From a virus: a stretch of DNA of 64,000 nt. Under the pieces are notes generated by a model that saw only the letters and a list, made by a program, of their open reading frames with translations, was not told where the DNA came from and ran no database searches. The DNA lies in the IMG/VR virus record IMGVR_UViG_3300030497_000009; one strand, given 5' to 3'. Positions 26,765 to 54,275 of the stretch are shown here, piece by piece. The translations under genes were made by a program, and so were the position numbers. How positions within the stretch are numbered: position 1 is the stretch's first letter; each line of letters starts with the position of its first letter.

Positions 26765-27070
26765 GAGTGACAAGAACTTTTTTACCCCGTAATGAAAGAC
26801 TTGTAAATACTTGAATATATGTATATATTATAATAAACATACAGTGTACATGAATGACGTGTTCAATTCAGAAAACATAAAGTTTTCTGAAGCGATGTAC
26901 AACATCGCTGTACAACCATAAAATAAGAAAAAGAACTTCTACAATTCTTCTTAGCGGTTTACTGTACTCTGAGCTTGTCTGTAATAGGGTTATTTAACGT
27001 TTAAATACGATTCTGGTTTAAATACCTTCTATAGAAGTAAAGGGTGTTTAAAACGAAATCTGAAGGCTCT
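26765..27070. repeat. Structured non-coding element, copy 1 (origin-like)
   Basis: 32-nt block identical to 53962-53993, AT-rich tract, twin hairpins, and a 19-nt block identical to 54220-54238. Confidence 0.8.
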
Positions 27071-27090
27071 GAGAAATTATTGTACAAAAC

Positions 27091-27125
27091 GGAGAACTTT
27101 CTGGCTGGTTATCCTTTTATTTAGG
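27091..27125 (+). promoter_or_regulatory. Phage-sigma (middle-like) promoter
   Basis: GGAGAA-N18-TTTTATTTAG. Confidence 0.6.
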
Positions 27126-27190
27126 TGTATTAACTAAACGAGCGAGCTTGTGTAGGCGAAAAGACCTAACAAGCCGAAAGGAGAATAATT

Positions 27191-27607
27191 ATGTCAATCG
27201 ACGGTCGCATTAAAGTAAGAGAAAATAACTTGGTACGTTTGAACGCGGAAAGGGATTCGTTATTCACTCATAAAACAACTAACCAGTACGTTTACGATAT
27301 GATTGTAAATAGAGTTTCGGAGCTTGACAAAGAAATCGCGGTTGTTAAAGAAGAGATTAACCAATTAAAAAGAGAAACCCCGACTCCGGAGGGCTACAAA
27401 GTCAAAGCGGTTAAGGTTTTGGAAGACCTAGCCGGTTGTGACAAACTCGAAAAAGGCTTTGTTTTTGAAGCAGAAGAAGTAAACCCTAATAAGATTCGTG
27501 TATACACAGGGTATTACATCCCCTTACAAGGCGGAAGAACAGAGCCGGTGACTCATCTTATCAACCGTGACAACCCTAAAGTGGAGCTGTTATTTGGCCA
27601 TGAGTAA
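27191..27607 (+). CDS. Hypothetical protein (coiled coil plus SH3-like C-terminus)
   Basis: AAAGGAG RBS. Confidence 0.7.
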   Translation: MSIDGRIKVRENNLVRLNAERDSLFTHKTTNQYVYDMIVNRVSELDKEIAVVKEEINQLKRETPTPEGYKVKAVKVLEDLAGCDKLEKGFVFEAEEVNPNKIRVYTGYYIPLQGGRTEPVTHLINRDNPKVELLFGHE

Positions 27608-27857
27608 CGCACCCTGCTTTACACACGTTGTCAGCGCAGTCACGATGGTATCGAAAGACTGTATTGACCCACTTATCTTTGCTGGTAGAAAGTATCCTGT
27701 TATCGCGTACATGGGTGATGGTGAATACTTGATAGAAACTGAGCCGAGTGAATACTATCATTATAACGGCTTTTGTTGTGGTATCACGATTAGTATCCTA
27801 AAACCTAAGATTGAACAGGCAATTAAGTTTCTCGACTTGTCGGAGACGAAAACGTGA
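27600..27857 (+). CDS. Hypothetical protein
   Basis: Start reassigned to ATG 27600 (overlap with upstream stop). Confidence 0.6.
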   Translation: MSNAPCFTHVVSAVTMVSKDCIDPLIFAGRKYPVIAYMGDGEYLIETEPSEYYHYNGFCCGITISILKPKIEQAIKFLDLSETKT

Positions 27858-28012
27858 GCGTTTTCTTTGCTTGTTGCTCAGGATTTACGCAGGGCTTTCT
27901 CTCTATGCTATACGGGAAAACCCTAGAAGAAATGGCTGACGGATTTGTGGCAGGCTTTTCCGTTGGCGTTTCAGAATTTTGTTATTACTTAGAATACAGG
28001 GAGGAAATGTAA
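27854..28012 (+). CDS. 52-aa hypothetical protein
   Basis: GTGA coupling, GGAG RBS. Confidence 0.5.
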   Translation: MSVFFACCSGFTQGFLSMLYGKTLEEMADGFVAGFSVGVSEFCYYLEYREEM

Positions 28013-28279
28013 ATGGAAGAAAAGCAAGTAATTGGAATGGAAGCGGCATGCTGGAAGTGTGAAAAAGTTTGGAATATCTCAACTTTACCGGCTGGCGCAA
28101 CGAGCGTAAAATGTGACTGCGGAGGATTCGTTGTAACTCCAAGTGGAAAAGCGATGATGAGACCAATTTATGACGTGTTCGATTCAAGAGCACCACTATT
28201 AGAAGTTGGTGACAACGAAACACCAGAAGTTACACCAAACAGAATAATTCTTCCGGGAGACGAGGGATTCAAAGCATGA
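28013..28279 (+). CDS. Zinc-ribbon protein
   Basis: CWKC...CDCG. Confidence 0.7.
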   Translation: MEEKQVIGMEAACWKCEKVWNISTLPAGATSVKCDCGGFVVTPSGKAMMRPIYDVFDSRAPLLEVGDNETPEVTPNRIILPGDEGFKA

Positions 28280-28452
28280 CAACCTTCTTTCTATTTCTTG
28301 TGTGGTTAGCTTCGCTTATCATGATGTTCGTTAACTTCCACTGGATTTGGTTAGTCATCTTTATTATTATTACCATCTATTTCCTTATCAAAATCGGTGG
28401 TGGCGGTGATTTCCTAGATGGTATCGGTGACGGTATTAGCTTCTTTGACTAA
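28276..28452 (+). CDS. 58-aa membrane protein
   Basis: Two hydrophobic helices, Gly/Asp tail. Confidence 0.6.
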   Translation: MTTFFLFLVWLASLIMMFVNFHWIWLVIFIIITIYFLIKIGGGGDFLDGIGDGISFFD

Positions 28453-28528
28453 AATGGTTGTACTCGTATTATGAGATTATTGTAGGCGGTCTAAAAGCCG
28501 TCTATTCCAACACAGAGAGGTGTTTGCC

Positions 28529-28900
28529 ATGCGCATCCGAGATAATTTATACCACTACAAATTCCAAGTACAGAAAGTCATCGATGGAGACACCATTGTA
28601 GGCAAACTAGACAAAGGGCGAAATAACTTTGACGAGGAAGTACATATCCGCATGCTGGGTATTCAGGCTCCTGAGATTTCAAAAGCGAAGACAGCTGAAG
28701 AACGTGTGCGAGGGTACGAAGCAAAGAACTTTCTTACTGACCTTATTCTAGGTAAAAGCGTAATTGTCAAGACTGTTAAAGCTGACGACGATGACAACTT
28801 TGGACGTATGCTGGCCATCGTGTATCTCCCAGAAAAAGACGACTTAGACGTGAACCAATATATGATTGATTCTGGTCACGCTGTTGTATATGAAGCTTAA
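28529..28900 (+). CDS. Thermonuclease (SNase) family nuclease, no signal peptide
   Basis: KVIDGDTI, IRMLGIQAPE, DNFGRMLA, VNQYMIDSGHA. Confidence 0.9.
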   Translation: MRIRDNLYHYKFQVQKVIDGDTIVGKLDKGRNNFDEEVHIRMLGIQAPEISKAKTAEERVRGYEAKNFLTDLILGKSVIVKTVKADDDDNFGRMLAIVYLPEKDDLDVNQYMIDSGHAVVYEA

Positions 28901-28904
28901 TGAG

Positions 28905-28927
28905 AGCACCCTTTGGGGTGCTTTTTG
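28905..28927 (+). terminator. Intrinsic terminator
   Basis: AGCACCC-TTTG-GGGTGCT plus T-tract. Confidence 0.8.
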
Positions 28928-28935
28928 TACACAAA

Positions 28936-28968
28936 GGAGTAAAAAGATGACGTGTAGACTTTTATTAG
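28936..28968 (+). promoter_or_regulatory. Phage-sigma (middle-like) promoter
   Basis: GGAGTA-N18-TTTTATTAG. Confidence 0.75.
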
Positions 28969-29001
28969 TCGTAGTTAGTTAAAACGGGAAAGGGTGATTG
29001 G

Positions 29002-29253
29002 ATGCTAAGCTTTTTCAAAAAGAAATACCGTTATGGAATGTTGTATCAGGTGGACGCGGTAAAAGGCAGAAAAGGCACGATGCTTTACGTATTTAACCGA
29101 GGGTACAACGAGCTAGAACGAAAGTTTGTAATTGACGTTGAGACGTTTGATTCTGAACTAGTTAACGTACTAAACATCTTGGGCAATCAAGGCTGGGAAG
29201 TAATCCAAGTATCTGATGAAGTAATCTATTTTAGAAAGGTTGTTAGAAAATGA
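29002..29253 (+). CDS. Hypothetical protein (DUF4177-like C-terminus)
   Basis: LNILGNQGWEVIQV...YFRK. Confidence 0.55.
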   Translation: MLSFFKKKYRYGMLYQVDAVKGRKGTMLYVFNRGYNELERKFVIDVETFDSELVNVLNILGNQGWEVIQVSDEVIYFRKVVRK

Positions 29254-29642
29254 AGCCTTATATCTGGAAAGATGGGATGACTGAAAAAGAAATGCGCGAC
29301 GGTGCTTATTGGGAAAGAAACATGCTTGCTCTTTACTTTGCTAAACAGGTTAATAAAACGTGGGAAGCTTTTGTAGAGCTTCAAAAAGCTGAAGGAAAAA
29401 CTAATCCCCAGCTAGATAAACCAGTTCCGTGTGGTTGGTATAAACATGAAGGAGAGGGCTTCGAAGGATGGTCACGAGTAATATCTCTCTTTGAAGGCAG
29501 ATTCACCTTCCACGTTCCAGATGACTTTGACATGGGTGATATCCCTAGAATTGAACCTAACTGGGATGGACACTCTACAGAAGAGAAATGGAACGCGATG
29601 ATGAAAGCTTGTGGAATTAAAGTTGACATGGAGGGAAAATAA
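29250..29642 (+). CDS. WDGH-motif phage protein
   Basis: Y.ERN.L...A...GW...TFH...WDGHSTEEK. Confidence 0.7.
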   Translation: MKPYIWKDGMTEKEMRDGAYWERNMLALYFAKQVNKTWEAFVELQKAEGKTNPQLDKPVPCGWYKHEGEGFEGWSRVISLFEGRFTFHVPDDFDMGDIPRIEPNWDGHSTEEKWNAMMKACGIKVDMEGK

Positions 29643-29929
29643 TGAATATCGTAGCAGTAATAAGCGCGCATGAGGAACAGAGTACAAAGATGGTAGCTAC
29701 ACGCAAGAAGAAAGGTCACTATTTAGTCCAGTTTATAGACGATGAAACCATTGACCAAATAATCGAAACTGACGACCTTTCTGTTACCGAGCTTAAAAAG
29801 ATTATAACTGACCACCTAAAAATGGGTTACAAAGTAGTTTCAATCTCAAATACGATGACTGGACGAGGAAGAAAGCCCGTTGGTTTGTCTCTTGATTCGA
29901 CAATAACAGTGACTAGGGAGGTAGAATAA
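29642..29929 (+). CDS. Hypothetical protein
   Basis: TAATG coupling. Confidence 0.65.
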   Translation: MNIVAVISAHEEQSTKMVATRKKKGHYLVQFIDDETIDQIIETDDLSVTELKKIITDHLKMGYKVVSISNTMTGRGRKPVGLSLDSTITVTREVE

Positions 29930-30111
29930 TGGATAGAATCAAAAGTGCTAAAATCGTTGGTGAAACGGCTACAGCGTATAAACTTTTATTAACATGGTAC
30001 TCTGGTAGACCAGAAAACGCGGTGATTTCTAAGAACTCTGTTGCGGATTACGATGATGTGGAAGAATACTTAAACTCACCAGAAGGTATTAACTTCTTGA
30101 TGGGACTATAA
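29929..30111 (+). CDS. Hypothetical protein
   Basis: GGGAGG RBS. Confidence 0.65.
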   Translation: MDRIKSAKIVGETATAYKLLLTWYSGRPENAVISKNSVADYDDVEEYLNSPEGINFLMGL

Positions 30112-30115
30112 AAGA

Positions 30116-30142
30116 AAGAGCCAACTTGTTTGGCTCTTTTAT
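30116..30142 (+). terminator. Intrinsic terminator
   Basis: AAGAGCCAA-CTTGT-TTGGCTCTT plus T-tract. Confidence 0.75.
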
Positions 30143-30154
30143 TTTGTCAATTTG

Positions 30155-30188
30155 GGAGTATATTGTTTCCCACTGTTGTTATATTAGG
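30155..30188 (+). promoter_or_regulatory. Phage-sigma (middle-like) promoter
   Basis: GGAGTA-N18-TTATATTAG; TGGGA/TCCCA inverted repeat. Confidence 0.6.
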
Positions 30189-30215
30189 TATAGTTGCTTT
30201 AGGAGAGTGAATGAT

Positions 30216-30287
30216 ATGTTGGAATTATTAGGGGTATTAATAGCTTTTGGAGTAGCAGTATATATGATAGAGACAGCAAATGACTGA
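30216..30287 (+). CDS. 23-aa hydrophobic peptide
   Basis: AGGAG RBS after the promoter. Confidence 0.4.
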   Translation: MLELLGVLIAFGVAVYMIETAND

Positions 30288-30378
30288 AAACGGTACTAAG
30301 GAATTACGTCTAAACCTCAGTTGCTCACGTATTATTGAGTAGGGGCAATTAAAATCTAAGAAGACAGGAGAGGATTTT

Positions 30379-30903
30379 ATGAAGGAAAAGGTACTCTTTA
30401 CAAACGGTAAAATCGAAGTACGGGAGAGGGATGGCTGGTTCGTATATGCACATACCTCGTTTAATGGGGGCATAGGCGTGGCTGTACTAGCGTACAAGAC
30501 GATTAAAGGAAAACGTTGGTATTTAGGAAGGCACGAGGTAACGCCCTCTCACAGCGACAAACCGATGCTCTGCGCGCTCACGGGTGGGTACGAGAAAAAG
30601 ATGACACTCGTGGAATGTGCTCTTAAAGAGCTATACGAGGAAGGTGGGTTCCGCGCTCCCCTGACAGCAGCAAGTAATTTGGGGATTGTACGTCCGAGTA
30701 AAGCTTCCGATACGATTATGCACCTTTACGCTGTAGACCTAGACAGCACCGGTGTTGAAGAGCTTAAAAGTGTGAGCGAAGGTAAAGTTGGTAGGTACGG
30801 TAGTTACGTGAAGTGGGTAACGGAAGAAGACCTTATTTATGCAGACGATCCGTTAAACCACGCGATGATTCTCAGGTTAAAGTACGCCCATCGAAATAGT
30901 TGA
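30379..30903 (+). CDS. Nudix hydrolase
   Basis: Nudix box GGYEK...ECALKELYEEGG. Confidence 0.85.
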   Translation: MKEKVLFTNGKIEVRERDGWFVYAHTSFNGGIGVAVLAYKTIKGKRWYLGRHEVTPSHSDKPMLCALTGGYEKKMTLVECALKELYEEGGFRAPLTAASNLGIVRPSKASDTIMHLYAVDLDSTGVEELKSVSEGKVGRYGSYVKWVTEEDLIYADDPLNHAMILRLKYAHRNS

Positions 30904-30911
30904 TGTACAGG

Positions 30912-30945
30912 GGAGACAACTTTTGCGGTTGTCTCCTTTTATTAG
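30912..30945 (+). promoter_or_regulatory. Phage-sigma (middle-like) promoter overlapping an inverted repeat
   Basis: GGAGAC-N19-TTTTATTAG; GGAGACAAC...GTTGTCTCC hairpin. Confidence 0.65.
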
Positions 30946-30970
30946 GTATAAAACTATTAGGAGTGATTAC

Positions 30971-31372
30971 ATGGGTAGGACAAGAAAGCTAATATCAAGA
31001 ATCGTTAAAGCTACGTTTCGAGCGTCGATGAAAGAAAGGCTTGGAGTTTTACTATACGCGTCTTCAGAGGGTGAACAGTACCAAACGAGAATCATAAGCA
31101 ATGAAGATAAGTTTAGGATGGTTGAAGAGTTTCATAAGTACGGAACTATTACAGTTCGCGATATAGACAGTCCGGGAGCACTACACGTTATGGTTGTAGA
31201 GCCTACGGAGATTATGTTCTTTGACTTTGACTCTCGTTATATTAAGCTGTTAGGCTCTCTTGAATACGACTCTTCTGAAGAGGTTCCTGACGTGATGCCT
31301 GATATCGACTTTTTGAGACGTAGTGACCAACGACGAAAAGAAGAGAACGACAGCTGGAGGTTCTACCAATGA
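30971..31372 (+). CDS. Hypothetical protein
   Basis: Start reassigned to ATG 30971 behind AGGAG. Confidence 0.7.
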   Translation: MGRTRKLISRIVKATFRASMKERLGVLLYASSEGEQYQTRIISNEDKFRMVEEFHKYGTITVRDIDSPGALHVMVVEPTEIMFFDFDSRYIKLLGSLEYDSSEEVPDVMPDIDFLRRSDQRRKEENDSWRFYQ

Positions 31373-31470
31373 GACTAAAACGCAGACGCAGACACCGTCA
31401 GTCGAAGGCAGAAAAGATAGCAGATATTATCTTGGACATCATCGAAATTGTAGTTAGCTTTAAAAAGTAG
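31369..31470 (+). CDS. 33-aa Arg-rich peptide
   Basis: MRLKRRRRHRQ...; GGAGG RBS. Confidence 0.5.
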   Translation: MRLKRRRRHRQSKAEKIADIILDIIEIVVSFKK

Positions 31471-31541
31471 TTTGAAAAGTTGTGAAAAAGAGTAATCATT
31501 TAGTAACGACCAGAATAGTATAGATTAAAATTTAAAAGGAG

Positions 31542-31745
31542 ATGGATAAAATGGGACGGGTTGGAATCTTTTTATTTACAGTCGCTTGCCTCCTAGGGTT
31601 TACGGGTATGTTACAATTTATCGTAGGAATACCAGCAGTTAATACCTTGCTGGCGATTATCGCGGTGAGCGTGGTTGTTCACTTATTCGCTTTCTATTCA
31701 GCCGTTGAGCAGTTCGGAGGTAAAGTAAGTGATTCAGAGAATTAA
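31542..31745 (+). CDS. Two-helix membrane protein
   Basis: AAAGGAG RBS, two hydrophobic segments. Confidence 0.7.
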   Translation: MDKMGRVGIFLFTVACLLGFTGMLQFIVGIPAVNTLLAIIAVSVVVHLFAFYSAVEQFGGKVSDSEN

Positions 31746-31828
31746 GAAGCAAGGTGACTCTTGGAAGGTGGTTCAAGAATTAACAATTAAAGAGGGTAAG
31801 CTGGTAGAAAAGCAGAAGGGTTGACTTT

Positions 31829-31878
31829 CTGCTTTTTCAACACAACAAAATCGTGGTCTGCGGGAATAGATATTACTT
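31829..31878 (+). promoter_or_regulatory. Late-like promoter module (copy 1)
   Basis: 30 nt identical to 34610-34639, then AGATATTACTT at the same offset. Confidence 0.65.
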
Positions 31879-31908
31879 CTTGTAACTAAATATGAAGGAG
31901 TGATACTT

Positions 31909-33525
31909 ATGTCTTTACGTCCAGATAAAGGTAGATTGGGTGATGACGTTTCTGCTGAGATAGATTTCACCCTTATGCACGTTCAGGATCTAATCTTGAA
32001 AAAGACAGAATGGGATGCTAAAATCGGAGGTTTATCTAGTACCGTTGGCGTCAGCGTTGAGTCATTTGGTGCTAAAGGAGATGGCACAGATGAAACATCT
32101 AAACTACTAAATGCATTTACTTACGCCCTAGAGAATGACATCCCTGTAAATTTAGGCGTTAAAAAAGAGTACAACGTTACAAGTCAGATGAAATTAGAGT
32201 TAACAACAGGTAAAAAACTATCTATCAGAGGTAACGGTTCCACAATCAAATTTTCTGGAAGTGGTGTGACTGGAATACAGTCCGTTTTAGAAGTAACTGA
32301 TAATAGTACCATAAACTTAACGGGCACGTCAATAGAAGTTGATGATCTAACTTTTGACGGAGTAGGCATTCCTGAACAATGGGAAGTAACCACATACGCT
32401 AATTTAAAACAGCTGTGGGGCTTAACGCTTCGAGCTGACACTATCCGTTTGAACAGAGTGGGCTTTAAAAATCTTTATGGGTACGGAATTAAAGTCAGAG
32501 GTTTCCAAAACGTATTCATCGATGGAGTTCAAGCTGATAAGGTTGGCGGTTGCTGGTATACAAACGACACCTACGATGCATTTGGAGATTCGATTTATAT
32601 CGGTGGTGGTAAGCAACCTAACAACACAACGAAAATTGATAATGTATACGCGGTTGGTTATCCGTCAGACAGACCAAGAAAATCAAGAATTGGAATCGCT
32701 TTTGAGAAAAGTGTAGAGATTGTTGATATTAAAAACATCTACGTTGAGGGTTATAACCGTGCTGTTCATATTGAAAACTGCCCTAATGTAATCTTCAATG
32801 GAATTAGTCTAAAAACAAGACGCTCTGACGTACACGTTTATATTCATACAGGATATAAAACAATCATGGTTGACTCATGGGATGCTGAGTGTACATCAGG
32901 TGGAGCCTACGGTGGACGTTCTGGACTGATTGCATTTGATACAATCGTTAATACTCCAAGAACGTGTAACATAAAAAATGGAAAAGTTAAAATTATGAAC
33001 GATGTCTCCACAAACTTTGCTTCTGAAAAGGTTGTATTTGAAAACACAGATATCGTAAATAGTGGTGGAAGACAGACGATTTCAGGTGGGGACACAACGT
33101 TAAGAGGTGGAAAAGTAGAAGGAAAAGCCTTACGTATTTACGCTGGACTACTTGAAACGCACGGTTGTACTACAGAAGGTAAAGACACAAGTCCTGTCAT
33201 AGAGGTTGAGTTTGGTAGTTCAAAAGGACGGTTACTTTGGAACGGAGGTATCATGAAAGACAGTCGCATTCACCTAATTAACGTCCCCTATGCTATGTTT
33301 AGTAACTTCACAGCGATTGAAACGATGAACTACCAATACAGTTCAACGTGTGTGTTCATTTCCGATTCGGCTTCAAAAGCGTTTATCAAAAATGGAACGT
33401 TGAAGACTACGACAAACGATGCGACTAAGTTTGTATTTGCTGACTCTCGCACTGTTTATCAAGGTGACAGCTATAAGATCCTGATTGATAACTCATCTGC
33501 AAAGGTTGCGTCTACAATTGTTTAA
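31909..33525 (+). CDS. Right-handed beta-helix (pectate-lyase-like) tailspike/depolymerase candidate
   Basis: VSVESFGAKGDGTDET motif followed by repetitive V/I-N/G beta-helix turns (FGDSIYIG, IAFEK). Confidence 0.8.
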   Translation: MSLRPDKGRLGDDVSAEIDFTLMHVQDLILKKTEWDAKIGGLSSTVGVSVESFGAKGDGTDETSKLLNAFTYALENDIPVNLGVKKEYNVTSQMKLELTTGKKLSIRGNGSTIKFSGSGVTGIQSVLEVTDNSTINLTGTSIEVDDLTFDGVGIPEQWEVTTYANLKQLWGLTLRADTIRLNRVGFKNLYGYGIKVRGFQNVFIDGVQADKVGGCWYTNDTYDAFGDSIYIGGGKQPNNTTKIDNVYAVGYPSDRPRKSRIGIAFEKSVEIVDIKNIYVEGYNRAVHIENCPNVIFNGISLKTRRSDVHVYIHTGYKTIMVDSWDAECTSGGAYGGRSGLIAFDTIVNTPRTCNIKNGKVKIMNDVSTNFASEKVVFENTDIVNSGGRQTISGGDTTLRGGKVEGKALRIYAGLLETHGCTTEGKDTSPVIEVEFGSSKGRLLWNGGIMKDSRIHLINVPYAMFSNFTAIETMNYQYSSTCVFISDSASKAFIKNGTLKTTTNDATKFVFADSRTVYQGDSYKILIDNSSAKVASTIV

Positions 33526-33540
33526 TTTTTAAACTTTTTG

Positions 33541-33570: not shown

Positions 33571-33625
33571 AAATGTGTAAGCTGAATATAATAAACTGAG
33601 AAACGAAAAAGGAGAGGTTTAATTT

Positions 33626-34588
33626 ATGAAACATTTAGTTGGTATCCCTAACGAGCTTCACTTTGCTTTTGAAAACGCGGTTGAGAATGGTAGCTTTAAA
33701 GAGTACGATGACATCCCGTTAAGTTTCGCTGTAAAAGAAGCTAAGGAGATTCTAGCAACGTTTGGAGAGAATGGTCACGTTAACCACGCTTTAATTAATT
33801 CGGGCGTTAAGGACGAATATGAGCCGGCTCAGAATGAGGTTAACGCGCTAATGTCTTATATCGAACGTTGGGAGCCAGAATTAGTGAACGAGGAAAATGT
33901 TGAAAAAGAAGGTATGGGTGAAAGCTCTCCTGTATATACTAAGGGTAAGAAGGAAAAGAAAACTACTTTAAAACCCAAAGGAGAGAATAAAATGACGACT
34001 TTTAAATGGAATAATCGCAAGAAGGCTACTGAAACGGCTGTTGAGTACAAAGTGGAAAAGAACATGAAACCTGAAGAAGCTGTAAAGGCTGTGTTAAAAG
34101 AATTTGAAGGTGTCTATCACGTAAACGGTGACCAGATTTCTGAAACGCGTTTAGCTAACTTTATCAAGCGTGTAGCCGACGAAAAGAAGTATAAGAAGTC
34201 TGCGAAAGCCGAAACGCCAAAGCTTGACTTAACGCATAAGAAAATCGAAGTGCTAGTTGGTAAAGGTGAACTTACTGAACTCCAAGCCCGTGTACTTGAT
34301 GCTGTTTACGTTCTATTAGAAGGCAACCACCCTTCGTTCTCTGACGCGACCCTAGATGATGTGGCTGATTATACGAGCCTGAAGCCGAACCAAATTAAAG
34401 GTGCTCTTGGCCATCTTATGAAGAAGGATTACGTTGAAACGAAAGAAACGACGTTTGCCAAGGATAAAACGGCTACCACTATCTGGATTAACGAAGACAA
34501 ACTTGAGCTGTACAACGATGACGTTCTTGAGTTTAAGCGCGGTATGGAAGCTGAGGAAGAAGCAGAAGCGGAAGCAGTAACCGAGTAA
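33626..34588 (+). CDS. Early protein with C-terminal winged HTH
   Basis: LTELQARVLD...ATLDDVADYTSLKPNQIKGALGHL.KKDYV. Confidence 0.7.
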   Translation: MKHLVGIPNELHFAFENAVENGSFKEYDDIPLSFAVKEAKEILATFGENGHVNHALINSGVKDEYEPAQNEVNALMSYIERWEPELVNEENVEKEGMGESSPVYTKGKKEKKTTLKPKGENKMTTFKWNNRKKATETAVEYKVEKNMKPEEAVKAVLKEFEGVYHVNGDQISETRLANFIKRVADEKKYKKSAKAETPKLDLTHKKIEVLVGKGELTELQARVLDAVYVLLEGNHPSFSDATLDDVADYTSLKPNQIKGALGHLMKKDYVETKETTFAKDKTATTIWINEDKLELYNDDVLEFKRGMEAEEEAEAEAVTE

Positions 34589-34609
34589 GCAACGGGCAGG
34601 GTTTATACC

Positions 34610-34659
34610 CTGCTTTTTCAACACAACAAAATCGTGGTCAAGAGAGCAAGATATTACTT
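34610..34659 (+). promoter_or_regulatory. Late-like promoter module (copy 2)
   Basis: 30 nt identical to 31829-31858, then AGATATTACTT. Confidence 0.65.
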
Positions 34660-45221: not shown

Positions 45222-45222
45222 A

Positions 45223-46564: not shown

Positions 46565-46771
46565 ATGACTAGAGAAGCTGTTTTGGAAAGAGAAGAACAA
46601 TTTGTGAGGGAACCATTTGTATTTGAGAGTGAAACAAGAGAACTAGTGAAACGTACTGCGGATAGGCTAAATAACCTACAATCTGATAAAACTTATGATG
46701 TTGATTACTTGACTAGAAATAATAAAACTATATACTACGTATTTGAAATAACAGACTTGGATGAAATATAA
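46565..46771 (+). CDS. Hypothetical protein (AT-rich)
   Basis: GAGGAG RBS. Confidence 0.65.
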   Translation: MTREAVLEREEQFVREPFVFESETRELVKRTADRLNNLQSDKTYDVDYLTRNNKTIYYVFEITDLDEI

Positions 46772-46787
46772 TAATTTATAATAAAGG

Positions 46788-47961: not shown

Positions 47962-48011
47962 ACATTAGTAATGGAGTAAATAACTAGAAATACGCGTTGT
48001 AATGTGCATGA

Positions 48012-48036
48012 GGGCTGGAAGTCTGCCAGCCTTTTT
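48012..48036 (+). terminator. Intrinsic terminator
   Basis: GGCTGG...CCAGCC plus T-tract. Confidence 0.7.
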
Positions 48037-48105
48037 CAACATTCTAAATGTCCTCCTTGATTCAGCTATATTTTTTAGTGACTGACTAACGAAGGAGGAA
48101 TTAAC

Positions 48106-48417: not shown

Positions 48418-48488
48418 AAAATCAGTATCCTAAAGCGTGTTTCTGTATAGACTATACTGTAACCTAACTTATAAAGGAGTGAAAGGTA

Positions 48489-48953: not shown

Positions 48954-48954
48954 T

Positions 48955-48980
48955 GGGGAGCCGTGAGCTCCTCTTTTTTA
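48955..48980 (+). terminator. Intrinsic terminator
   Basis: GGGGAGC-CGTGA-GCTCCTC plus T-tract. Confidence 0.7.
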
Positions 48981-48985
48981 TTTAT

Positions 48986-49070
48986 TTGACAAAATGAGGA
49001 ATAAACTGTTGAATTGTGTATAAACTAGTAGTATGATAAGTTTGTAAGTTAATCTGAGTCATAAAAGGAG
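48986..49070 (+). promoter_or_regulatory. SigmaA-type early promoter with conserved leader (copy B)
   Basis: TTGACA(48986), TTGAAT(49009)-N17-TATGAT(49032). Confidence 0.8.
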
Positions 49071-49073
49071 AAG

Positions 49074-49937
49074 ATGGAAATGGAAAAACGTAAAGAGGAA
49101 CTTTTAACGAAAATTCAAAATTTATTAAACACAACTACTGATAAAGGTGCTAGTGAAGCAGAAGCCCAAAGCGCAATTTTGTTGGCGCAAAAGTTAATGG
49201 CGAAACACGGTTTGGAAACGTCTGACGTTGAAGCTAGTGGTGAACCAGTATCGAAAGAGGTTGCAGAAGCTGCTGGCCAAGATAAAGGTGGGGTGCTACA
49301 ATGGTGGGAGAAGAACCTTGCGAAAATTATTGCTGACAACTTCCGATGCTACACTTTTACGCGTGGGTATGGTAGACGTTACTTTATTGTATTTATGGGG
49401 TTGAAGGAAGATACGGAAATCGCGAAGAACATCTTTAAATTCGCTTCTGCTCAGATTGAACACCATGCTCGCCAATATCGTCGCTCTCGCAAGAAAGAGC
49501 TTGAGAAGCAACTCCCGAAAGATTTCAAGAAGTTCACGCTTGACCAACTAAAAGACTTCGCGATTGACATCGATGTTCCTTGGAGAAGAGTTGACTCCGC
49601 GCTTGATTACGATACAGACGCGATGAAGCGAAAATACTTAACGAGCTACATTAAAGAAAAGCTTGGACTCAACATAGATGGTGTGGCGTTACGAAACGAC
49701 TACGTGAGTGGATTCCTTAAAGGGCTAGGCGATAAGCTACGTGAACAACAAAAAGCCAACGAAGCAGAGTGGGGATTGGTACTTGTTAAAGATACAGACG
49801 TTGTTGCCAAGTACGAATCGATGAACTTTACGAAGGGTAAAGCTTCCAAAGTTTCGAGTAGTGGTGACGCAGAAGCGTATAGTGCCGGTGTGAAGCAGGG
49901 TAAAGCCTTTAGTAGCGCGTCTGGCGAGTTAGAATAA
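49074..49937 (+). CDS. DUF2786-domain protein
   Basis: KIQNLL......EAEAQSA...AQKLMAKHGL; LAKIIADNFRC; ..F.G..ED; Y..G...G C-terminus. Confidence 0.8.
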   Translation: MEMEKRKEELLTKIQNLLNTTTDKGASEAEAQSAILLAQKLMAKHGLETSDVEASGEPVSKEVAEAAGQDKGGVLQWWEKNLAKIIADNFRCYTFTRGYGRRYFIVFMGLKEDTEIAKNIFKFASAQIEHHARQYRRSRKKELEKQLPKDFKKFTLDQLKDFAIDIDVPWRRVDSALDYDTDAMKRKYLTSYIKEKLGLNIDGVALRNDYVSGFLKGLGDKLREQQKANEAEWGLVLVKDTDVVAKYESMNFTKGKASKVSSSGDAEAYSAGVKQGKAFSSASGELE

Positions 49938-50043
49938 ATGAACTAAGACCTTGGGCTTATGCCTGAGGTTTCTTTATGTTTAGAAAATTCTAAAAGATTC
50001 TCCTGTGGGGTTGATATTACCTTAAAAAAGGAGAGTGGTTAGA

Positions 50044-50235
50044 ATGGCACAGAAGTTAACGTTTGAACAGAAGATAAAAGCAGAGCAGATCATGATGTAC
50101 ACATACATGGATTACCATTTAGCAATATTGCACGAAGCTATTGAAAAAGGTGACGCAGAAGCGCAAACCTTACAGCTTGGACAACTAGAGAAGACAAGAG
50201 AACGGTTAATTGAACTTGGTTATTTCACAGCTTGA
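50044..50235 (+). CDS. Small helical Bacillus-type hypothetical protein
   Basis: DYHLAILHEAI.KGD......LE..RERL; preceded by a GATATT box. Confidence 0.6.
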   Translation: MAQKLTFEQKIKAEQIMMYTYMDYHLAILHEAIEKGDAEAQTLQLGQLEKTRERLIELGYFTA

Positions 50236-50325
50236 CAAAATGTAGGAAAAACTGTTGAAATGTAGAGAATAAACAATTATACTTGAACTATGTTAAATTA
50301 ACCGAGTCGAAAAAGGAGAGGTTAT
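50232..50325 (+). promoter_or_regulatory. SigmaA-type early promoter with conserved leader (copy C)
   Basis: TTGACA(50232), TTGAAA(50255)-N17-TATACT(50278); leader CCGAGTCGAAAAAGGAGAGG. Confidence 0.8.
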
Positions 50326-50329
50326 CTTT

Positions 50330-50866
50330 ATGGAAAAAGTTAAGGAGTACAGAATCAACGTTAGGCAGTTCCTCACTAAACCTAATCCAAAATACCCGAA
50401 TAAAGCCCCTGTGCCGATGCGCACGATGTTTGGCCAAATTACCAAAGAAACTGAAAAAGCGATTTACGTTGTTATGAAGGGCAAACCTGAACCAACTGAT
50501 ACTTGTATGCGTTGTGGGAGAGGACTTGACCACCCAGTATCCGTTTTATACGGCATAGGTCCTGAATGTGGAATGCATTATCACATTAGCCCGTTTAGCA
50601 CTAAAGAAGAACTGGATGCCCAGATGGACATTCTGAAAGCTAACTTGGCTGACGTTGTTTATGAAGGCTGGTTGCCTAAAGGTTATATTACTTACGAAGA
50701 AACTGGAGAGACGGTTGAGAAGGCTGAAACGGAGCTTGAAGCTTCTAATAAAGACTTAGCTAAGAAAGCTGAGAAAAAGCCTGAGCCAGCCGTTTTAGAG
50801 CCTGTGAAGGCGGATAAAGAGCTAGCGAAGAAGTTGGCTTCCGAATTTAATAAGATGTTCAAATAG
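50330..50866 (+). CDS. DUF6011-like zinc-finger protein
   Basis: CMRCGRGLDHPVSVLYGIGPECG. Confidence 0.75.
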   Translation: MEKVKEYRINVRQFLTKPNPKYPNKAPVPMRTMFGQITKETEKAIYVVMKGKPEPTDTCMRCGRGLDHPVSVLYGIGPECGMHYHISPFSTKEELDAQMDILKANLADVVYEGWLPKGYITYEETGETVEKAETELEASNKDLAKKAEKKPEPAVLEPVKADKELAKKLASEFNKMFK

Positions 50867-50898
50867 GAGTAAATTGTTGTATCGTATCTTTTTGTTAT
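50866..50898 (+). promoter_or_regulatory. Phage-sigma (middle-like) promoter
   Basis: GGAGTA-N18-TTTTGTTAT. Confidence 0.55.
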
Positions 50899-50926
50899 TC
50901 GAAACCTAATTTGAGGAGTGTTGGAT

Positions 50927-51169
50927 ATGTCAAGAGTAAACGATGTGAAGCAAGAACGTTTTAACAAAGTTATGGATAAAGTAATCGCGGTTGGTTTGGT
51001 TGCTGGTGTTTGTTTTGCTGCTCCGATTTTCTTTAAGGGTGCTGGTGTATTTTACCACCAGCAGTACGAAAAACCCGTCCTTGAATCCAAGATTTACGAA
51101 AAGGATACGTATACGAGAGAAACGATGCAACAAGGTACTTTTGAAATTGTTTATAAAAATAAGGAATAA
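50927..51169 (+). CDS. Single-pass membrane protein
   Basis: One hydrophobic segment; GGAG RBS. Confidence 0.65.
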   Translation: MSRVNDVKQERFNKVMDKVIAVGLVAGVCFAAPIFFKGAGVFYHQQYEKPVLESKIYEKDTYTRETMQQGTFEIVYKNKE

Positions 51170-51223
51170 GAGACGAGCTGTTTGCGTAAACTAGTAGTAA
51201 CTTAAAACAAAGGAGTGTTTGTT

Positions 51224-53617
51224 ATGGCGGTGGCGACTACGGGTTTATATCCGATTCACCATATTGTGGAAAAAGATGGAAAGCGTTCTGTGGAATCAAA
51301 ATATGTAAGTTTAGAAGAAGCGAAAGGTGCAGGTTACTTCTACGAAACGGAAAAGAAAGGTAAAGATGCACTTCAAAAATTACTACGTACTATACGTAAA
51401 GAGCTTGGCTCTCCTGAGTATCGAGAAATGATAAAATCGAATGGTTTAAGCTGGGAGGAGAAACCCCACGAGGGTGCTAATACGATGTTGGCAACGATGA
51501 CAGCTTATAACCACTTAATGGAGGGTAAATCGTTGTTCATTGGAGATAAGAGCGAGTATGAAGCTCGTAACGTGAAAAGTAATAAAGGGCGAAAAGCGGA
51601 AGCGACGGCAAAGCCCTCTAAGCCAAAGAAAAAACTGAATAAAACGCTGTTTGAAGTGTTTGGCATCTTGAACCTTAACTACTCTGAAGAGAATGACCAC
51701 ATTGTTATTGGTGATGGTCATACGAAAGCAGAAGGTAAATGGGGCAAGCTTGAGACTGAAGTGGGATCTATCCGTTTAGTTGACATCGAGGAAGTTACAT
51801 ACCGCAGAAAATCCCAAGGTCATTTCTTCGTAGTAGATAGCTGTTTCCGAGATAAGAATATGATTAAGGACGAGCTTGGTGGAAACTTTAAGAGTGAAAC
51901 GAAGCAGTGGAGAATTCCTTTTATCTACTTTATCGAGCTACTAAAGAAATATAAGCATATTACGATTGACCGTAAAATCGCGTTAACGGTTGTTGAAGCG
52001 TTTGAGCAAATCGAGTTGGAAGATATTGACACTGAGTTTACGTTTAATCCTGATGATGTTCCTACGGGTACGACGGAAGATGACATTGATATCTCAAACT
52101 TTGTTTTACCAGAAGGAATCCACGGAGTAGAGCTTTATCCCCACCAGAAAAAAGGCGTTATGTTTATGCTAGAAAATAAACGCGCGATCCTTGGGTTGGC
52201 TGTTGGTCTTGGTAAAACGTTGTCAACGATTGTTGCAGTCCAGCAACTATTTAACGAAAAGAAAATTGAGAAAGCGTTGGTTGTTTGCCCATCGTCCGTA
52301 AAGTATAACTGGAAGAAGGAAATTGAGAAGTTCTCTGGTATGACTGCATTGGTTCTTTCGTCTAGTATGGTGCGTGGACGTAAAGCCGAGAAAACTTGGG
52401 AATCCGCGAAAGAAGCGCAAATCCTAATCGCGAACTATGATATGCTTCGAAATGACGAAACTCGTGAAGAGCTTTTCGACTTAGCTCCTAACTGTATCAT
52501 CGCTGACGAAGCGCATAAACTTAAGAATGTGAAAGCGAAACAAACGAAAGCGTTCCGTAAGACTTGGAGAATGGCTGAGTATAAGTTTTTCCTAACGGCT
52601 ACACCTTTCCCTAACGGAAAGCCACAAGAAACGTATACGATCCTGAGTAACCTGAGAATGGACAAGCTAGGTAGCTGGTCAAACTTCTCTGGAGCGTTCG
52701 TTGAAAGCACTGGTCAGTATTCTTCGAATCTTGTCAACACCGAGTATCTAAAAGAAAGAATGTCTGACATCGTATTTATCCGAACTCACCATAGTAAAGA
52801 CGTAACTGCCGCATTACCACACGATAGACATTTTACTTTTGGAATCGAAATGACGAAAGAGCAGAAGAGATTATACAAAGTTGTTGCAGAGGAAATCGAG
52901 GGCGAAATTGAACGCCTAGAAAAAATGGGTGTGAAAGCTGGCTCTCCTGCTGTCATCGCGAAACTTAAGAAACTTGAGAGTGTTGCACTCGATCCCGATA
53001 TCCTGCAAGAGGATACTTCGAAAATCGATATGAACAAACTTTCTCCGAAGGAAGAATGGGTTGTGGATATGATTGAACAACACTTCCTAGGTGACGATGC
53101 TGACGGGTTTGTAGTCTTCTCGAATATGAAGTTGCCAATTGCGAAGATGGCACAGGGCTTAAAGAATCGCGGTTTTGCTGATTCTGAAATCGCTTATATT
53201 ATGGGTGGTGTGAATCCTGAAAAGCGTACCGAAGTTTCAAACCGTTTAGAGCGCGGTGAAGTGAAAGTTGTATTCTGTACGAGTGCTGCTGAAGAGGGTG
53301 TTAACTTACAAAAAGGGGCTTCTAACCTTATCCACTTTGACACTGACTGGACTCCTAAATCGATTACCCAACGCGAAGGGCGCGTGCTTCGTCAAGGTAG
53401 TACGAGTGAAGTGTGTAACTTCTTTTCTCCTATCGTAACGAATACGGTGGAAGACTTAAAAAGAGCGAAAGTTGGAATTAAAGTCGAGGTTATTGAAGAG
53501 CTACTTGGAAATGGAACGACTGGTTCTGTGAAAAATAACATTACGGCTGACCAAAATATCGCTAGTGGAAGCTTAACATTCGATGATATCCGTGGTATGA
53601 TAAGTGCTGACGTCTGA
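51224..53617 (+). CDS. SNF2-family (SMARCAL1/HepA-like) helicase with N-terminal shared cargo module
   Basis: YPHQKKG, GLGKT, VVCPSSV..NW, IADEAH, LTATP, EGVNLQ, WTP...QREGRVLRQG; N-terminal module NGLSWEEKPHEGANTMLA. Confidence 0.92.
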   Translation: MAVATTGLYPIHHIVEKDGKRSVESKYVSLEEAKGAGYFYETEKKGKDALQKLLRTIRKELGSPEYREMIKSNGLSWEEKPHEGANTMLATMTAYNHLMEGKSLFIGDKSEYEARNVKSNKGRKAEATAKPSKPKKKLNKTLFEVFGILNLNYSEENDHIVIGDGHTKAEGKWGKLETEVGSIRLVDIEEVTYRRKSQGHFFVVDSCFRDKNMIKDELGGNFKSETKQWRIPFIYFIELLKKYKHITIDRKIALTVVEAFEQIELEDIDTEFTFNPDDVPTGTTEDDIDISNFVLPEGIHGVELYPHQKKGVMFMLENKRAILGLAVGLGKTLSTIVAVQQLFNEKKIEKALVVCPSSVKYNWKKEIEKFSGMTALVLSSSMVRGRKAEKTWESAKEAQILIANYDMLRNDETREELFDLAPNCIIADEAHKLKNVKAKQTKAFRKTWRMAEYKFFLTATPFPNGKPQETYTILSNLRMDKLGSWSNFSGAFVESTGQYSSNLVNTEYLKERMSDIVFIRTHHSKDVTAALPHDRHFTFGIEMTKEQKRLYKVVAEEIEGEIERLEKMGVKAGSPAVIAKLKKLESVALDPDILQEDTSKIDMNKLSPKEEWVVDMIEQHFLGDDADGFVVFSNMKLPIAKMAQGLKNRGFADSEIAYIMGGVNPEKRTEVSNRLERGEVKVVFCTSAAEEGVNLQKGASNLIHFDTDWTPKSITQREGRVLRQGSTSEVCNFFSPIVTNTVEDLKRAKVGIKVEVIEELLGNGTTGSVKNNITADQNIASGSLTFDDIRGMISADV

Positions 53618-53640
53618 GTTTCGATTCTCAGGCGTTTTTC
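53610..53640 (+). terminator. Intrinsic terminator
   Basis: CGTCTGAG...CTCAGGCG plus T-tract. Confidence 0.7.
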
Positions 53641-53706
53641 TTTGTCTTAATATAAAGTTACCCCTTTCTAGATTAAATTAGTTGTAGAGCCAGCCAAGAG
53701 CTGAGA

Positions 53707-53928
53707 ATGGTCAGAAAGAGGGTAATCCTTTTGGAAGCAGAAAAAGTAAAGCTTTATATGACAAGCGGAACGATTTTATACCGTCCTGGGAATGAACAAG
53801 TAACACGATCCCAAATCAACTCTTCTAACGCAAGAGGAGCTGCTGTTGCTTCAGCTTATTTAGACGAAGCTTGTACACAGCATGTTCAGGTAGCTCTAGC
53901 CAATATTGAGTATTTCCACGATATTTAA
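53707..53928 (+). CDS. Hypothetical protein
   Basis: ORF between two terminators. Confidence 0.6.
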   Translation: MVRKRVILLEAEKVKLYMTSGTILYRPGNEQVTRSQINSSNARGAAVASAYLDEACTQHVQVALANIEYFHDI

Positions 53929-53955
53929 GCCCTGTCGTTGACAGGGTATTTTTTA
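53929..53955 (+). terminator. Intrinsic terminator
   Basis: CCCTGTC-GTT-GACAGGG plus T-tract. Confidence 0.7.
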
Positions 53956-53961
53956 TGTACA

Positions 53962-54275
53962 GAGTGACAAGAACTTTTTTACCCCGTAATGAAGTACATG
54001 TAAATATATAATATATTAATAATACTTGTATATGTATGTATAATACAATATGTTACATACATGTTCAATTCAATTACTTCGTAATTGAAGGCTACGCCTG
54101 TACAACTATTTTCTTGTTCAGATAGGAAATTCTTTATTAGTCGAATACGAGAGCGAAAGGTTAAGCTATACTGACCAGTGAGAAATACGAGAATAGATTT
54201 ATTCACTCGTTTAATCTCTTTCTGGTTTAAATACCTTCGAAAGTATAAAAACGTGCTTAAAACGAATCTGAGAGC
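53962..54275. repeat. Structured non-coding element, copy 2 (origin-like)
   Basis: Same ordered blocks as 26765-27070. Confidence 0.8.

Follow-up and report, generated by a model that had tools for sequence, protein, structure and literature searches.

We observed that a short DNA cassette, present twice (copies A and B) in the phage window analysed here (the whole 64,000-nucleotide stretch of IMG/VR record IMGVR_UViG_3300030497_000009), is, judged by sequence, clade-conserved in SP10-like Herelleviridae (Bacillus and Lysinibacillus phages) at two to three copies per genome. Its shared core, ~150 nt long, comprises a conserved box of 45-60 bp (box 1), a tract of 60-80 bp with 13-25% GC, and perfect hairpins that adjoin one another. 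The cassette most likely marks a start site of replication or transcription; to our knowledge, such sites have never been mapped in the SP10-like phage group. It carries no annotation in the window phage, in LysYB1 or in SP-10.

Copies A and B in the window

A sequence-only reading had described a two-copy element, and every sequence feature that it listed was recovered where it had been placed: the 32-mer, the 19-mer, TAAAACGAA(A)TCTGA (27049-27063 and 54258-54271) and the twin hairpins (Table 1). The 32-mer has exactly two matches in the window at ≤3 mismatches (26765-26796 and 53962-53993; shuffles expect 0), the 19-mer has two against 0.05 expected, and a profile-HMM search of the window returned copies A and B and no others. 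The count of two holds for the window; outside it, the 156-kb phage has another copy (copy C, sequence in L112), which differs slightly. Copy C occurs in the same phage population at a comparable depth: unitig depths were 34 for the 32-mer, 17 for the flanks and 13 for the variant copy. This phage was found in no RNA run. No ORF common to copies A and B was found. The 19-mer begins 246 nt from the element start in copy A and 258 nt in copy B.

Table 1 Features of the cassette copies and their surroundings in the window.
Feature	Position	Strand	Description or basis
Separate twin hairpin after 298-aa gene	12318-12355		fold z -1.8
TGTACA upstream element, copy A	26749-26754	+	10 nt before box 1
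Box 1, copy A	26765-26809	+	identical 32-mer plus GTAAATA extension; repeat family D19
AT-rich tract, copy A	26797-26866		base composition
Hairpin 1a, copy A	26867-26891		TTCAGAAAAC-ATAAA-GTTTTCTGAA; fold
Second hairpin, copy A	26892-26916		GCGATGT-ACA-ACATCGC, then TGTACAAC
Second half, copy A	26999-27063	+	three near-palindromic GTTTAAA(T)AC boxes, 19-mer (27011-27029), TAAAACGAAATCTGA (27049-27063); repeat family D10
SPO1-middle-like promoter of gene 27191	27081-27124	+	TGTACA, GGAGAA, N18, TTTTATTTAG; fits window-wide cassette
Intrinsic terminator of upstream 73-aa gene	53929-53954	+	immediately 5' of copy B
TGTACA and box 1, copy B	53956-54006	+	32-mer match, hexamer
AT-rich tract, copy B	53994-54068		base composition
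Hairpin 1b, copy B	54069-54089	-	TTCAATTAC-TTC-GTAATTGAA; minus strand a 9-bp stem with C-GAA-G cap
GGCTACGCC, then TGTACAAC, copy B	54090-54106	-	minus strand GCGTAGC, a mini-hairpin DNA motif
Second half, copy B	54209-54271	+	TTTAA boxes, 19-mer (54220-54238), TAAAACGAATCTGA (54258-54271)

The AT-rich tracts are extreme for the window. The 60-mer at 53998-54057 in copy B (13% GC) is the most AT-rich of the 64-kb window, and that at 26778-26837 in copy A (20% GC) is among its five most AT-rich. Copy A's tract holds a TATAAT (26829-26834) and a TTGTAA-17-TATATT match, and copy B's holds TTAATA-17-TATAAT (54016-54044). The twin hairpins fold at -20.6 kcal/mol (z -5.2) in copy A (26867-26891 and 26892-26908) and at -10 kcal/mol (z -2.2) in copy B (54069-54089 and 54090-54098). 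Next in each copy stands TGTACAAC, with 15 occurrences in the window where 2.6 are expected. The TGTACA found before box 1 also precedes at least nine GGAGTA-N18-TTTTATTAG promoters in the window. As a separate observation, Logan contigs end exactly at the TGTACA and box 1 of copy B.

Comparison with orthologues showed that the cores change slowly. Copy A differs from L003, L005 and L006 at 8 of ~320 positions, two of them in the box-1 extension and none in the 32-mer, while its flanks are only 78-87% identical; copy B's core is 96-100% identical to L001, against 78-88% for the downstream spacer. The second half of copy B diverges between the window and L001 at a near-neutral rate. We found no conserved or consensus RNA fold in the 19-mer half, where conservation is of sequence only, so the earlier idea of conserved structure with changed sequence does not apply there. 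This half of A and B, with its 19-mer and TTTAAA boxes, is a separate, putative regulatory or binding region at the sequence level, outside the fold.

Hairpin pairing and template-strand loops

Selection on the base pairing of the hairpins is supported by covariation across three phage lineages, although the contrast between copies A and B on which this claim had been built carries less weight. Both pairs of stems fold as had been described, but they are not strictly homologous: copy A combines a type 1a hairpin (ATAAA loop) with a second stem of its own and copy B a type 1b hairpin (TTC loop) with GGCTACGCC, so the apparent compensation is a replaced stem. Genuine compensatory changes occur among orthologues, and among copies B, C and those of LysYB1 and SP-10. 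In hairpin 1a, a G-C pair has become A-T in L003, L005 and L006 and in runs X2 and X3, and its loop and stem top recur in LysYB1-lineage copies; the second hairpin of copy A was found in copy A alone and has a GNA loop on neither strand. Across six distinct copies, both partners had changed in five of the nine pairs, and no pair showed a one-sided change. Paired cells made up 90.7%, compared to at most 48% in slid controls, and none of 500 shuffles matched the observed pairing score. All pairs are Watson-Crick except one peripheral G-T. Within one genome, stems differ wholly in sequence between copies and are still complementary.

The strand that folds appears to be the bottom (template) strand. 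There, 11 of 13 copies carry a hairpin of 7-9 bp capped by a C-GNA-G triloop, together with the mini-hairpin DNA motif GCGNAGC or GCGNNAGC (GCG(N)NAGC); the canonical GCGAAGC and GCGGAGC both occur in SP-10. Neither loop is present in copy A or its orthologue, yet these two copies are strongly conserved. The window contains 46 occurrences of GCGNAGC/GCGNNAGC, most of them in coding sequence, compared to 26 in shuffles; the motif counts only in its conserved context. Since the copies are paralogues and orthologues, shared descent could partly explain the conservation of the loops. Such SSB-resistant loops are known from the priming origins of G4, St-1 and alpha3, from RSF1010 ssiA and from N4 promoters (PMC13037366; PMC4496689); we took the definition of the mini-hairpin motif from the former (PMC13037366).

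Copies in related phages and their gene neighbourhood

Absence from relatives had been named as part of what would refute the element; the cassette is present in Lysinibacillus phage LysYB1 (three copies, as in its metagenomic relative) and in B. subtilis phage SP-10 (at least two). All copies are co-oriented with the adjacent downstream gene and lie 60-400 nt upstream of it, most of them straight after an intrinsic terminator. Often that gene is the one with which a functional block begins. One cassette precedes the endolysin, which opens the block of lysis and head genes, and another the UvsW-like helicase, which opens that of the replication genes; a further copy precedes the large terminase (TerL) in the LysYB1 lineage and the 27191 operon in the window phage. 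This placement is common to lineages whose helicases share only 45-51% protein identity.

Candidate functions

We tentatively put first the reading that the cassette serves as a replication origin or in single-strand initiation, and that transcription possibly primes it. The box would be a sequence-specific protein recognition site, and the AT tract, from its composition, would be first to melt, opening either when the box is bound or when transcription starts from it. Hairpins extruded from the bottom strand would withstand SSB and steer the loading of primase or helicase, DNA synthesis would begin at them and run rightward, co-directional with the genes, and the copies would serve as multiple phage origins. 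An origin, a packaging or recombination site and a structured RNA had all been proposed earlier. A DNA-level signal, whether origin or hairpin promoter, is favoured by the Watson-Crick stems, the template-strand GNA and mini-hairpin loops and the adjoining extreme AT tract, and a sense-strand RNA is retained. Packaging or recombination is disfavoured, since two to three co-oriented copies per genome each lie just 5' of a same-strand gene.

The architecture of such an origin would be that of a T7/T4-like promoter-plus-AT-tract origin fused to G4/ssiA-type single-strand initiation hairpins. The complementary-strand origins of G4, St-1 and alpha3 and RSF1010 ssiA likewise carry several adjacent hairpins with template-strand mini-hairpins of the GCGNAGC/GCGNNAGC type, and initiation is expected 3' of the hairpins on the template, which for the cassette means rightward synthesis. 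Those signals, however, work on naturally single-stranded genomes or at a plasmid oriV after initiator-driven opening, whereas the phage genomes considered here are double-stranded, of 140-156 kb, and in them the hairpins adjoin a long box and an AT tract and would direct priming. In the T7 primary origin and T4 oriF and oriG, a promoter leads straight into an AT-rich unwinding region of ~60 bp, and these multiple origins are co-directional with transcription. The cassette resembles them in its promoter-like element, AT tract, several copies per genome and co-direction, but has conserved twin hairpins that they lack, and the promoter activity of box 1 is putative. A 1977 report described multiple origins for SPO1, and we know of none mapped at the sequence level. 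Bacillus phage SPP1 provides a precedent in oriL and oriR, two related non-coding or embedded copies far apart that join protein-binding repeats to an AT-rich unwinding element (PMC6316719); gp38 binds its direct repeats, and the initiator gene contains oriL, whereas the cassette has a single box 1 and lies neither in nor beside the initiator-like gene.

Several observations count against an origin. GC skew tracks gene strand only, with no origin signature; box 1 stands alone, with no iteron array; and no copy lies within or next to a putative initiator gene, the 418-aa protein of L112 being ~4 kb downstream of copy C. The site itself is this phage's usual place for a promoter, since it follows a terminator, precedes a gene and, in the window lineage, comes after TGTACA, and copy A is strongly conserved despite lacking the loops.

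The main rival to this reading, somewhat less likely, is a purely transcriptional role. Box 1 and the AT tract would then form a rare-class promoter (sigma-A-like or phage-factor-dependent), and the hairpins would fold in the sense leader RNA as a cis-acting put/nut-like processive antiterminator, a stabiliser or a processing site, resulting in full transcription of long blocks with internal terminators. The co-oriented placement before genes and behind terminators fits this, as do the TGTACA shared with GGAGTA-N18-TTTTATTAG promoters, the TATAAT boxes inside the AT tract, the similar AT-richness of this phage's early promoters and the many terminator-like hairpins in the downstream blocks. 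Box 1 admits the reading xTGACA-N17-TAATGA (TTGGTA-N17-TATCAA or -TATCAT in relatives), but no -10 is convincing and the T at -7 is absent from most such readings; moreover, copies A and C have a standard promoter between hairpins and gene. HK022 putL and putR are a parallel: two ~70-nt two-stem RNAs past early promoters that head long transcription units, with pairing preserved, acting over >10 kb (PMC9378689), and RNA antiterminators are known from Gram-positive mobile elements (PMC11658703). The put RNAs, however, have long bulged stems with specific non-canonical pairs and, in the form of sense RNA, target the beta' zinc-binding domain, whereas the cassette's stems are short and perfect and its canonical stable loops (GNA/GNNA) lie on the antisense strand; on the sense strand the loops read UNC or UNNC, for which no stabilising fold is known. 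One G-U in 54 pair cells is below what is usual for RNA helices, the second hairpin, with only two to three base pairs, is plausible as a DNA mini-hairpin and marginal as RNA, and an Rfam search gave no match.

A promoter of the N4 type, in which supercoiling extrudes a template-strand hairpin for a phage polymerase, possibly virion-delivered, and rightward transcription begins a fixed distance downstream, is improbable. An AT-rich flank favours extrusion (C-type cruciform kinetics), and the adjoining tract would do so here. The three early N4 promoters (P1-P3) are template-strand hairpins with a 5-7 bp stem and a 3-nt loop, 5'G and 3'A, closed by C:G (GCGGAGC, or GAA loops), and SSB melts the opposite strand only (PMC4496689; PMC13037366). 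The cassette shares the template-strand C-GNA-G loop, the two to three copies per genome, variable stem bases that need only pair and, in one SP-10 copy, GCGGAGC itself. Its stems, at 7-9 bp, are similar but longer, it has an additional 45-60 bp box and AT tract, and N4 promoters require no 50-bp upstream box. The window showed no N4-like polymerase gene: none of the 13 window proteins scanned (Pfam or PHROGs), from the 64 kb read of a 156-kb genome, is a single-subunit RNA polymerase, and the largest window ORF is 870 aa. Herelleviridae redirect the host polymerase through sigma factors (PMC3601020).

We give equally little credence to a double-stranded binding platform with no part in initiation, its palindromes being dimer-binding sites. 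It might be a site of nucleoid or partition type, an array for a regulator or silencer, or a site of packaging or recombination. Box 1 is long, with conservation complete even across its would-be spacer, the second half has near-palindromic GTTTAAA(T)AC boxes and TGTACA is enriched, but same-genome stems that differ completely yet stay complementary point to folding and not to sequence-specific dimer binding. Nor do two or three direct copies resemble a single pac site, and as recombination sites they would invite deletions. A small non-coding RNA gene, giving a sense RNA that ends past the hairpins or an antisense RNA with GNRA-type loops, is very improbable: fold stability is significantly above that of shuffles and an antisense transcript would bear GNA or GNRA-like loops, but neither a terminator after the hairpins on either strand nor a conserved leftward promoter nor an Rfam match was found.

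A further twin hairpin with TGTACA had been pointed out after the Rep-like gene. The hairpin (12318-12355) exists, with GCGTAAGC at its tip on the minus strand, but it is weak and the TGTACA belongs to the next promoter cassette. We rejected it as a cassette copy, as it has neither box 1 nor an AT tract. The tie between the cassette and the Rep-like gene is weak, consisting of a similar hairpin style with no sequence homology.

Copies of the cassette in the window phage and its relatives

We observed that the two window copies of the duplicated element, A and B, both lie directly upstream of plus-strand genes and align at 74% identity, with fully identical blocks alternating with diverged stretches and indels. 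Each begins with box 1, which includes the 32-mer, followed by an AT tract and adjacent hairpins (together, the cassette), and continues downstream into a second half that contains the 19-mer. The sequence-only reading had described both oligomers as two-copy repeats, and this was confirmed: the 32-mer matched at 26765 and 53962 and, even with up to three mismatches allowed, exactly twice, where shuffles expect none; the 19-mer lies at 27011 and 54220. The adjacent hairpins fold as that reading claimed, at -20.6 kcal/mol in copy A (z -5.2) and -10 kcal/mol in copy B (z -2.2). The element is also non-coding, as had been proposed, in that no ORF common to A and B was found and the indels are not multiples of three; hidden small ORFs within the cassette were rejected, none being common to both copies. 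Scanning the window with a profile HMM built from seven copies returned only A and B, and a candidate fourth copy at 46721-46780 was rejected as coding sequence.

Copy number in the window phage, which was assembled from a plant or rhizosphere metagenome as a 156-kb contig, was assessed from the Logan contigs of the source run. The 32-mer forms a separate unitig at a depth of 34 compared to 17 in its flanks (twofold), and a third, slightly variant copy lies inside a 12-kb Logan contig at a similar depth (13). This third copy, C, is outside the window on IMG/VR contig L112, where it is located between a beta-helix tail gene and the UvsW-like helicase that opens the replication module. Box, AT tract and twin hairpins are all present, followed directly by a standard promoter and without the 19-mer half, so the common core measures ~150 nt. 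Since the three copies enclose essential structural genes, they are unlikely to be the boundaries of a long terminal repeat. On the same contig, an HNH homing-endonuclease-like gene with a C-terminal HTH (4626-5333, minus strand) directly follows the UvsW-like helicase in the replication module.

The nearest named relatives of the window phage are YungSlug, LysYB1 and SP-10 (Herelleviridae, SP10 type). Orthologues of A and B are present in close relatives (contigs L001, L003, L005 and L006), and the more distant LysYB1 lineage has three copies, found on Logan contigs, each broken within the element, and also in a mis-binned MAG. In this MAG, titled 'uncultured Clostridiaceae bacterium' (L114 / G001), contigs C9 (45 kb, with TerL, SNF2 helicase and endolysin) and C134 (UvsW-like helicase) are pieces of a LysYB1-like Herelleviridae phage, which looks like a binning artefact. 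Logan contigs from several runs (L009-L014 and L111) end exactly within the cassette, at the 32-mer or the common hairpin region, which indicates that identical stretches of at least 31 nt between copies break k=31 assemblies.

A covariance model, the check that the sequence-only reading had proposed, was built from five cassette copies and searched in the relatives' genomes. It returned three copies in LysYB1, all in unannotated gaps and placed, as in the rest of its lineage, before TerL, the amidase endolysin and the UvsW-like helicase. A weak match was obtained in SP-10, at the syntenic spot after the SNF2 helicase, and a second SP-10 copy lies before its DNA helicase; these regions too are unannotated in the GenBank record. 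Neither pattern nor covariance model found the cassette in YungSlug, the nearest named relative by helicase. Blastn of A and B against 50,697 phage records gave zero matches. For the 138-aa downstream gene, there was no tblastn match in phage records, and a viral-contig scan gave no relatives. Scanning viral contigs with an SNF2-helicase alignment brought up only distant SNF2 proteins (~25% identity), a metagenome pattern scan around the hairpins only already-known contigs and random matches, and the endolysin homologue, tried as a path to relatives, ended at an unrelated prophage. The cassette is clade-wide, with two or three copies per genome, and occupies syntenic positions just upstream of same-strand genes.

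Positions of cassette copies, promoters and repeat families (window coordinates, or record coordinates for LysYB1 and SP-10)
Feature	Positions	Strand	Remarks
Copy A	26765-27070		divergence point between leftward early cluster and 27191 operon
Copy B	53962-54275		directly after intrinsic terminator, ahead of endolysin
LysYB1 copies	25245-25386, 115427-115554, 129366-129495		host Lysinibacillus fusiformis
SP-10 copies	55866-56051, 92089-92223		host B. subtilis
Promoter cassette -10 boxes, first eight	2914, 4408, 10266, 11085, 12417, 14897, 16678, 18122
Promoter cassette -10 boxes, other eight	19120, 28960, 30179, 30937, 40039, 44490, 46852, 56178
Sigma-A-type repeat	3949-4040, 48986-49075, 50232-50323	+
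Sigma-A-type repeat	23573-23633, 24336-24396, 26575-26635	-
Third repeat family	31796-31858, 34577-34639, 48012-48041		upstream of 541-aa gene, tail-spike gene and gene 48106

Base pairing and template-strand loops

The core of copy A differs from its orthologues at 8 of ~320 positions, compared to 78-87% identity in the flanks; among these eight is a double change, G-C to A-T, in hairpin 1a (loop ATAAA). For copy B, the core is 96-100% identical to that of L001, and the spacer after the hairpins 78-88%, lower than neighbouring coding sequence. We then compared hairpin 1b (loop TTC in copy B) in six distinct copies, namely B, C, two from the LysYB1 lineage and two from SP-10. In this set, 90.7% of cells are paired compared to at most 48% with a slid partner, both members have changed in five of the nine pairs and a single member in none, and the observed covariation was reached by 0 of 500 shuffles. 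Apart from one peripheral G-T, all stems are Watson-Crick. In these alignments, stem pairing shows the marks of selection. The earlier claim of kept structure with changed sequence stands for the six 1b copies but not for the contrast between A and B, which carry different hairpins: copy A has type 1a with its own second stem, and copies B and C have type 1b. In the LysYB1-lineage copies before TerL and endolysin, 1a and 1b overlap.

The sense-strand loops, T-N-C and GCT(N)(N)CGC, match no known motif. In 11 of the 13 copies compared, the loops on the template strand of the downstream genes are C-GNA-G triloops (C-GAA-G, C-GTA-G, C-GGA-G) on stems of 7-9 bp, and the minus strand also carries the mini-hairpin DNA motif (GCGNAGC / GCGNNAGC); the exceptions are copy A and its orthologue. 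GCGTAGC, GCGCTAGC or GCGTGAGC adjoins the template-strand hairpin, and in SP-10 GCGAAGC and GCGGAGC lie within the hairpin itself. Mini-hairpins of this kind, defined as GCG-N(1-2)-AGC with two G-C pairs and a sheared G-A pair, are exceptionally stable, bind SSB poorly and are known from the primase start sites of G4, St-1 and alpha3, in RSF1010 ssiA and in N4 virion-RNAP promoters (PMC13037366). Judged by these motifs, the template-strand loops are of the single-strand-initiation (ssi) type. Because the motif is not rare elsewhere in the window, the argument leans on its conserved context.

The twin hairpin reported after the 298-aa 'Rep-like' gene does exist (12318-12355), but it is weak (z -1.8) and has neither box nor AT tract, and the TGTACA that follows it is the start of the next promoter cassette. 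Its first hairpin (12318-12341) has GCGTAAGC (GCGNNAGC) at the minus-strand tip, in the mini-hairpin style of the cassettes and without sequence homology to them.

Candidate functions of the cassette

In AT content, the tract of copy B ranks first among the 60-mers of the window (13% GC), and that of copy A falls within the top five, together with early promoters. Within a lineage, box 1 is conserved throughout, would-be spacer included; across lineages, its skeleton is a T-run, CGTA(A/T) and AAAGAC/CAT(A/G)TAA. From these sequence features we infer the function of the cassette, and we tentatively favour a replication origin or ssi cassette, perhaps opened by transcription as in the T7 and T4 origins, because under this reading the bottom-strand motifs, the all-Watson-Crick stems, the extreme AT tract and the box fit together best. 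Iteron-type origins such as those of SPP1 and lambda combine several direct initiator repeats with an AT-rich element; the cassette has its AT tract and one box 1 per copy, and A and B have three GTTTAAA(T)AC boxes in their second half. GC skew was uninformative on origin position.

A more doubtful proposal identifies the cassettes with the multiple, so far unmapped origins from which SPO1/SP10-type phages replicate; they would work by a mechanism undescribed for large dsDNA phages. The AT tract would be opened by a box-directed or transcription-driven route, and the template strand would then extrude SSB-resistant, GNA-capped mini-hairpins. These could serve as G4/ssiA-like priming signals for rightward leading-strand synthesis, co-directional with transcription.

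The main rival, which we consider rather unlikely, is a promoter followed by a sense-strand leader element, for example a put-like antiterminator. It gives the best account of the post-terminator position and of the co-orientation with genes, and the adjacent stems do fold on the sense strand; however, put stems are unlike those of the cassette, which are short and perfect (PMC9378689). Nothing in the window reached the gathering score in an Rfam scan, the sole weak match being STnc390 (E 0.35, 17.9 bits compared to a 50-bit cutoff).

The regular promoter cassette of this phage reads TGTACA N0-5 GGAGTA N18 TTTTATTAG behind a terminator; its full form comprises a terminator hairpin, a TGTACA/TTGACA-like element, GGAGTA, N18, TTTTATTAG and GTATAAG. 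At several GGAGTA promoters, the terminator hairpin ahead holds the -35 in its loop or arm (repeat family D1), and these promoters closely resemble the SPO1 gp28 middle promoters (AGGAGA / TTTNTTT). TGTACAAC occurs 15 times in the window compared to 2.6 expected. Both the TGTACA ahead of box 1 and the TGTACAAC behind the hairpins are part of this genome-wide promoter syntax. The gene-proximal promoter is clear in copy A (27081-27124) and degenerate in copy B; CTTTATTAG after copy B was rejected as a cryptic promoter, not being conserved in L001.

Box 1 itself allows a weak sigma-A-type promoter reading, with TATAAT boxes in the AT tract, but none of the promoter readings convinces across all copies. 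As an SPO1 late promoter (CGTAATG-N18-GAATAT or AATATA), compared by eye in an alignment, it has only 4/7 and 3-4/6 matches to the consensus CGTTAGA-N17-19-GATATT (PMC3601020) and was rejected. By eye, ECF-, sigma-B-, sigma-D-, sigma-E/K/G- and SPO1-late-type readings, both of box 1 and of the CATACA motif, were likewise rejected, as the spacing fits none of them across copies.

An N4-like hairpin promoter would reconcile the origin-type and promoter-type facts. N4 hairpin extrusion needs a C:G closing pair and a loop with 5'G and 3'A (PMC4496689), and the cassette, in the 11 copies with GNA loops, has these on the template strand, with a 3-nt loop. However, a scan of 13 proteins from the window, which spans 64 of 156 kb and has a largest ORF of 870 aa, showed no single-subunit (virion) RNA polymerase, and we regard this reading as improbable.

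The Herelleviridae include model and therapeutic phages, and to our knowledge the replication origins and rarer promoter classes of the SPO1/SP10-like members are undefined at the sequence level. Origins, ssi signals and hairpin promoters are each known; their combination in large Gram-positive myophages is not, and we found no description of the element in a literature search that was not aimed at it. The cassettes provide precise candidate sites in two cultivable phages, SP-10 and LysYB1. An origin or ssi function would extend the mini-hairpin initiation motif, so far seen in ssDNA coliphages, RSF1010 and N4, to large double-stranded Gram-positive phages. If the leader reading holds instead, the SPO1/SP10-like Herelleviridae would have an antiterminator-type leader, of which we know no description.

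The 19-mer half and other repeats of the window

Three near-palindromic GTTTAAA(T)AC boxes are limited to the second half of A and B, which looks like a binding region ahead of the gene-proximal promoter. A conserved RNA fold was rejected here, with a consensus energy of just -3.8 to -6.7 kcal/mol. TTTAAT(T)CTCTTTCTGG lies upstream of the copy B 19-mer (window 54205-54225) and also downstream of the TerL-proximal copy on L120, a contig of the LysYB1 lineage; the second half is therefore ancient too, at least in part.

A second repeated cassette, of sigma-A type, consists of TTGACAAAA, ~14 nt, TTGAAT, N17 and TATGAT. It presumably marks early promoters, driving the leftward GT2/GH16 cluster and a few rightward genes. 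The third repeat family combines a terminator hairpin with a downstream CTTTTTCAACACAACAAAATCGTGGTC and may represent a further promoter class. Comparison of window 26640-26745 with L003 3660-3906 shows that this relative has, between the GH16 promoter and copy A, a 54-aa gene under a promoter of its own; the window retains just a decayed remnant, in which the ATG has become ATA and most of the gene is lost.
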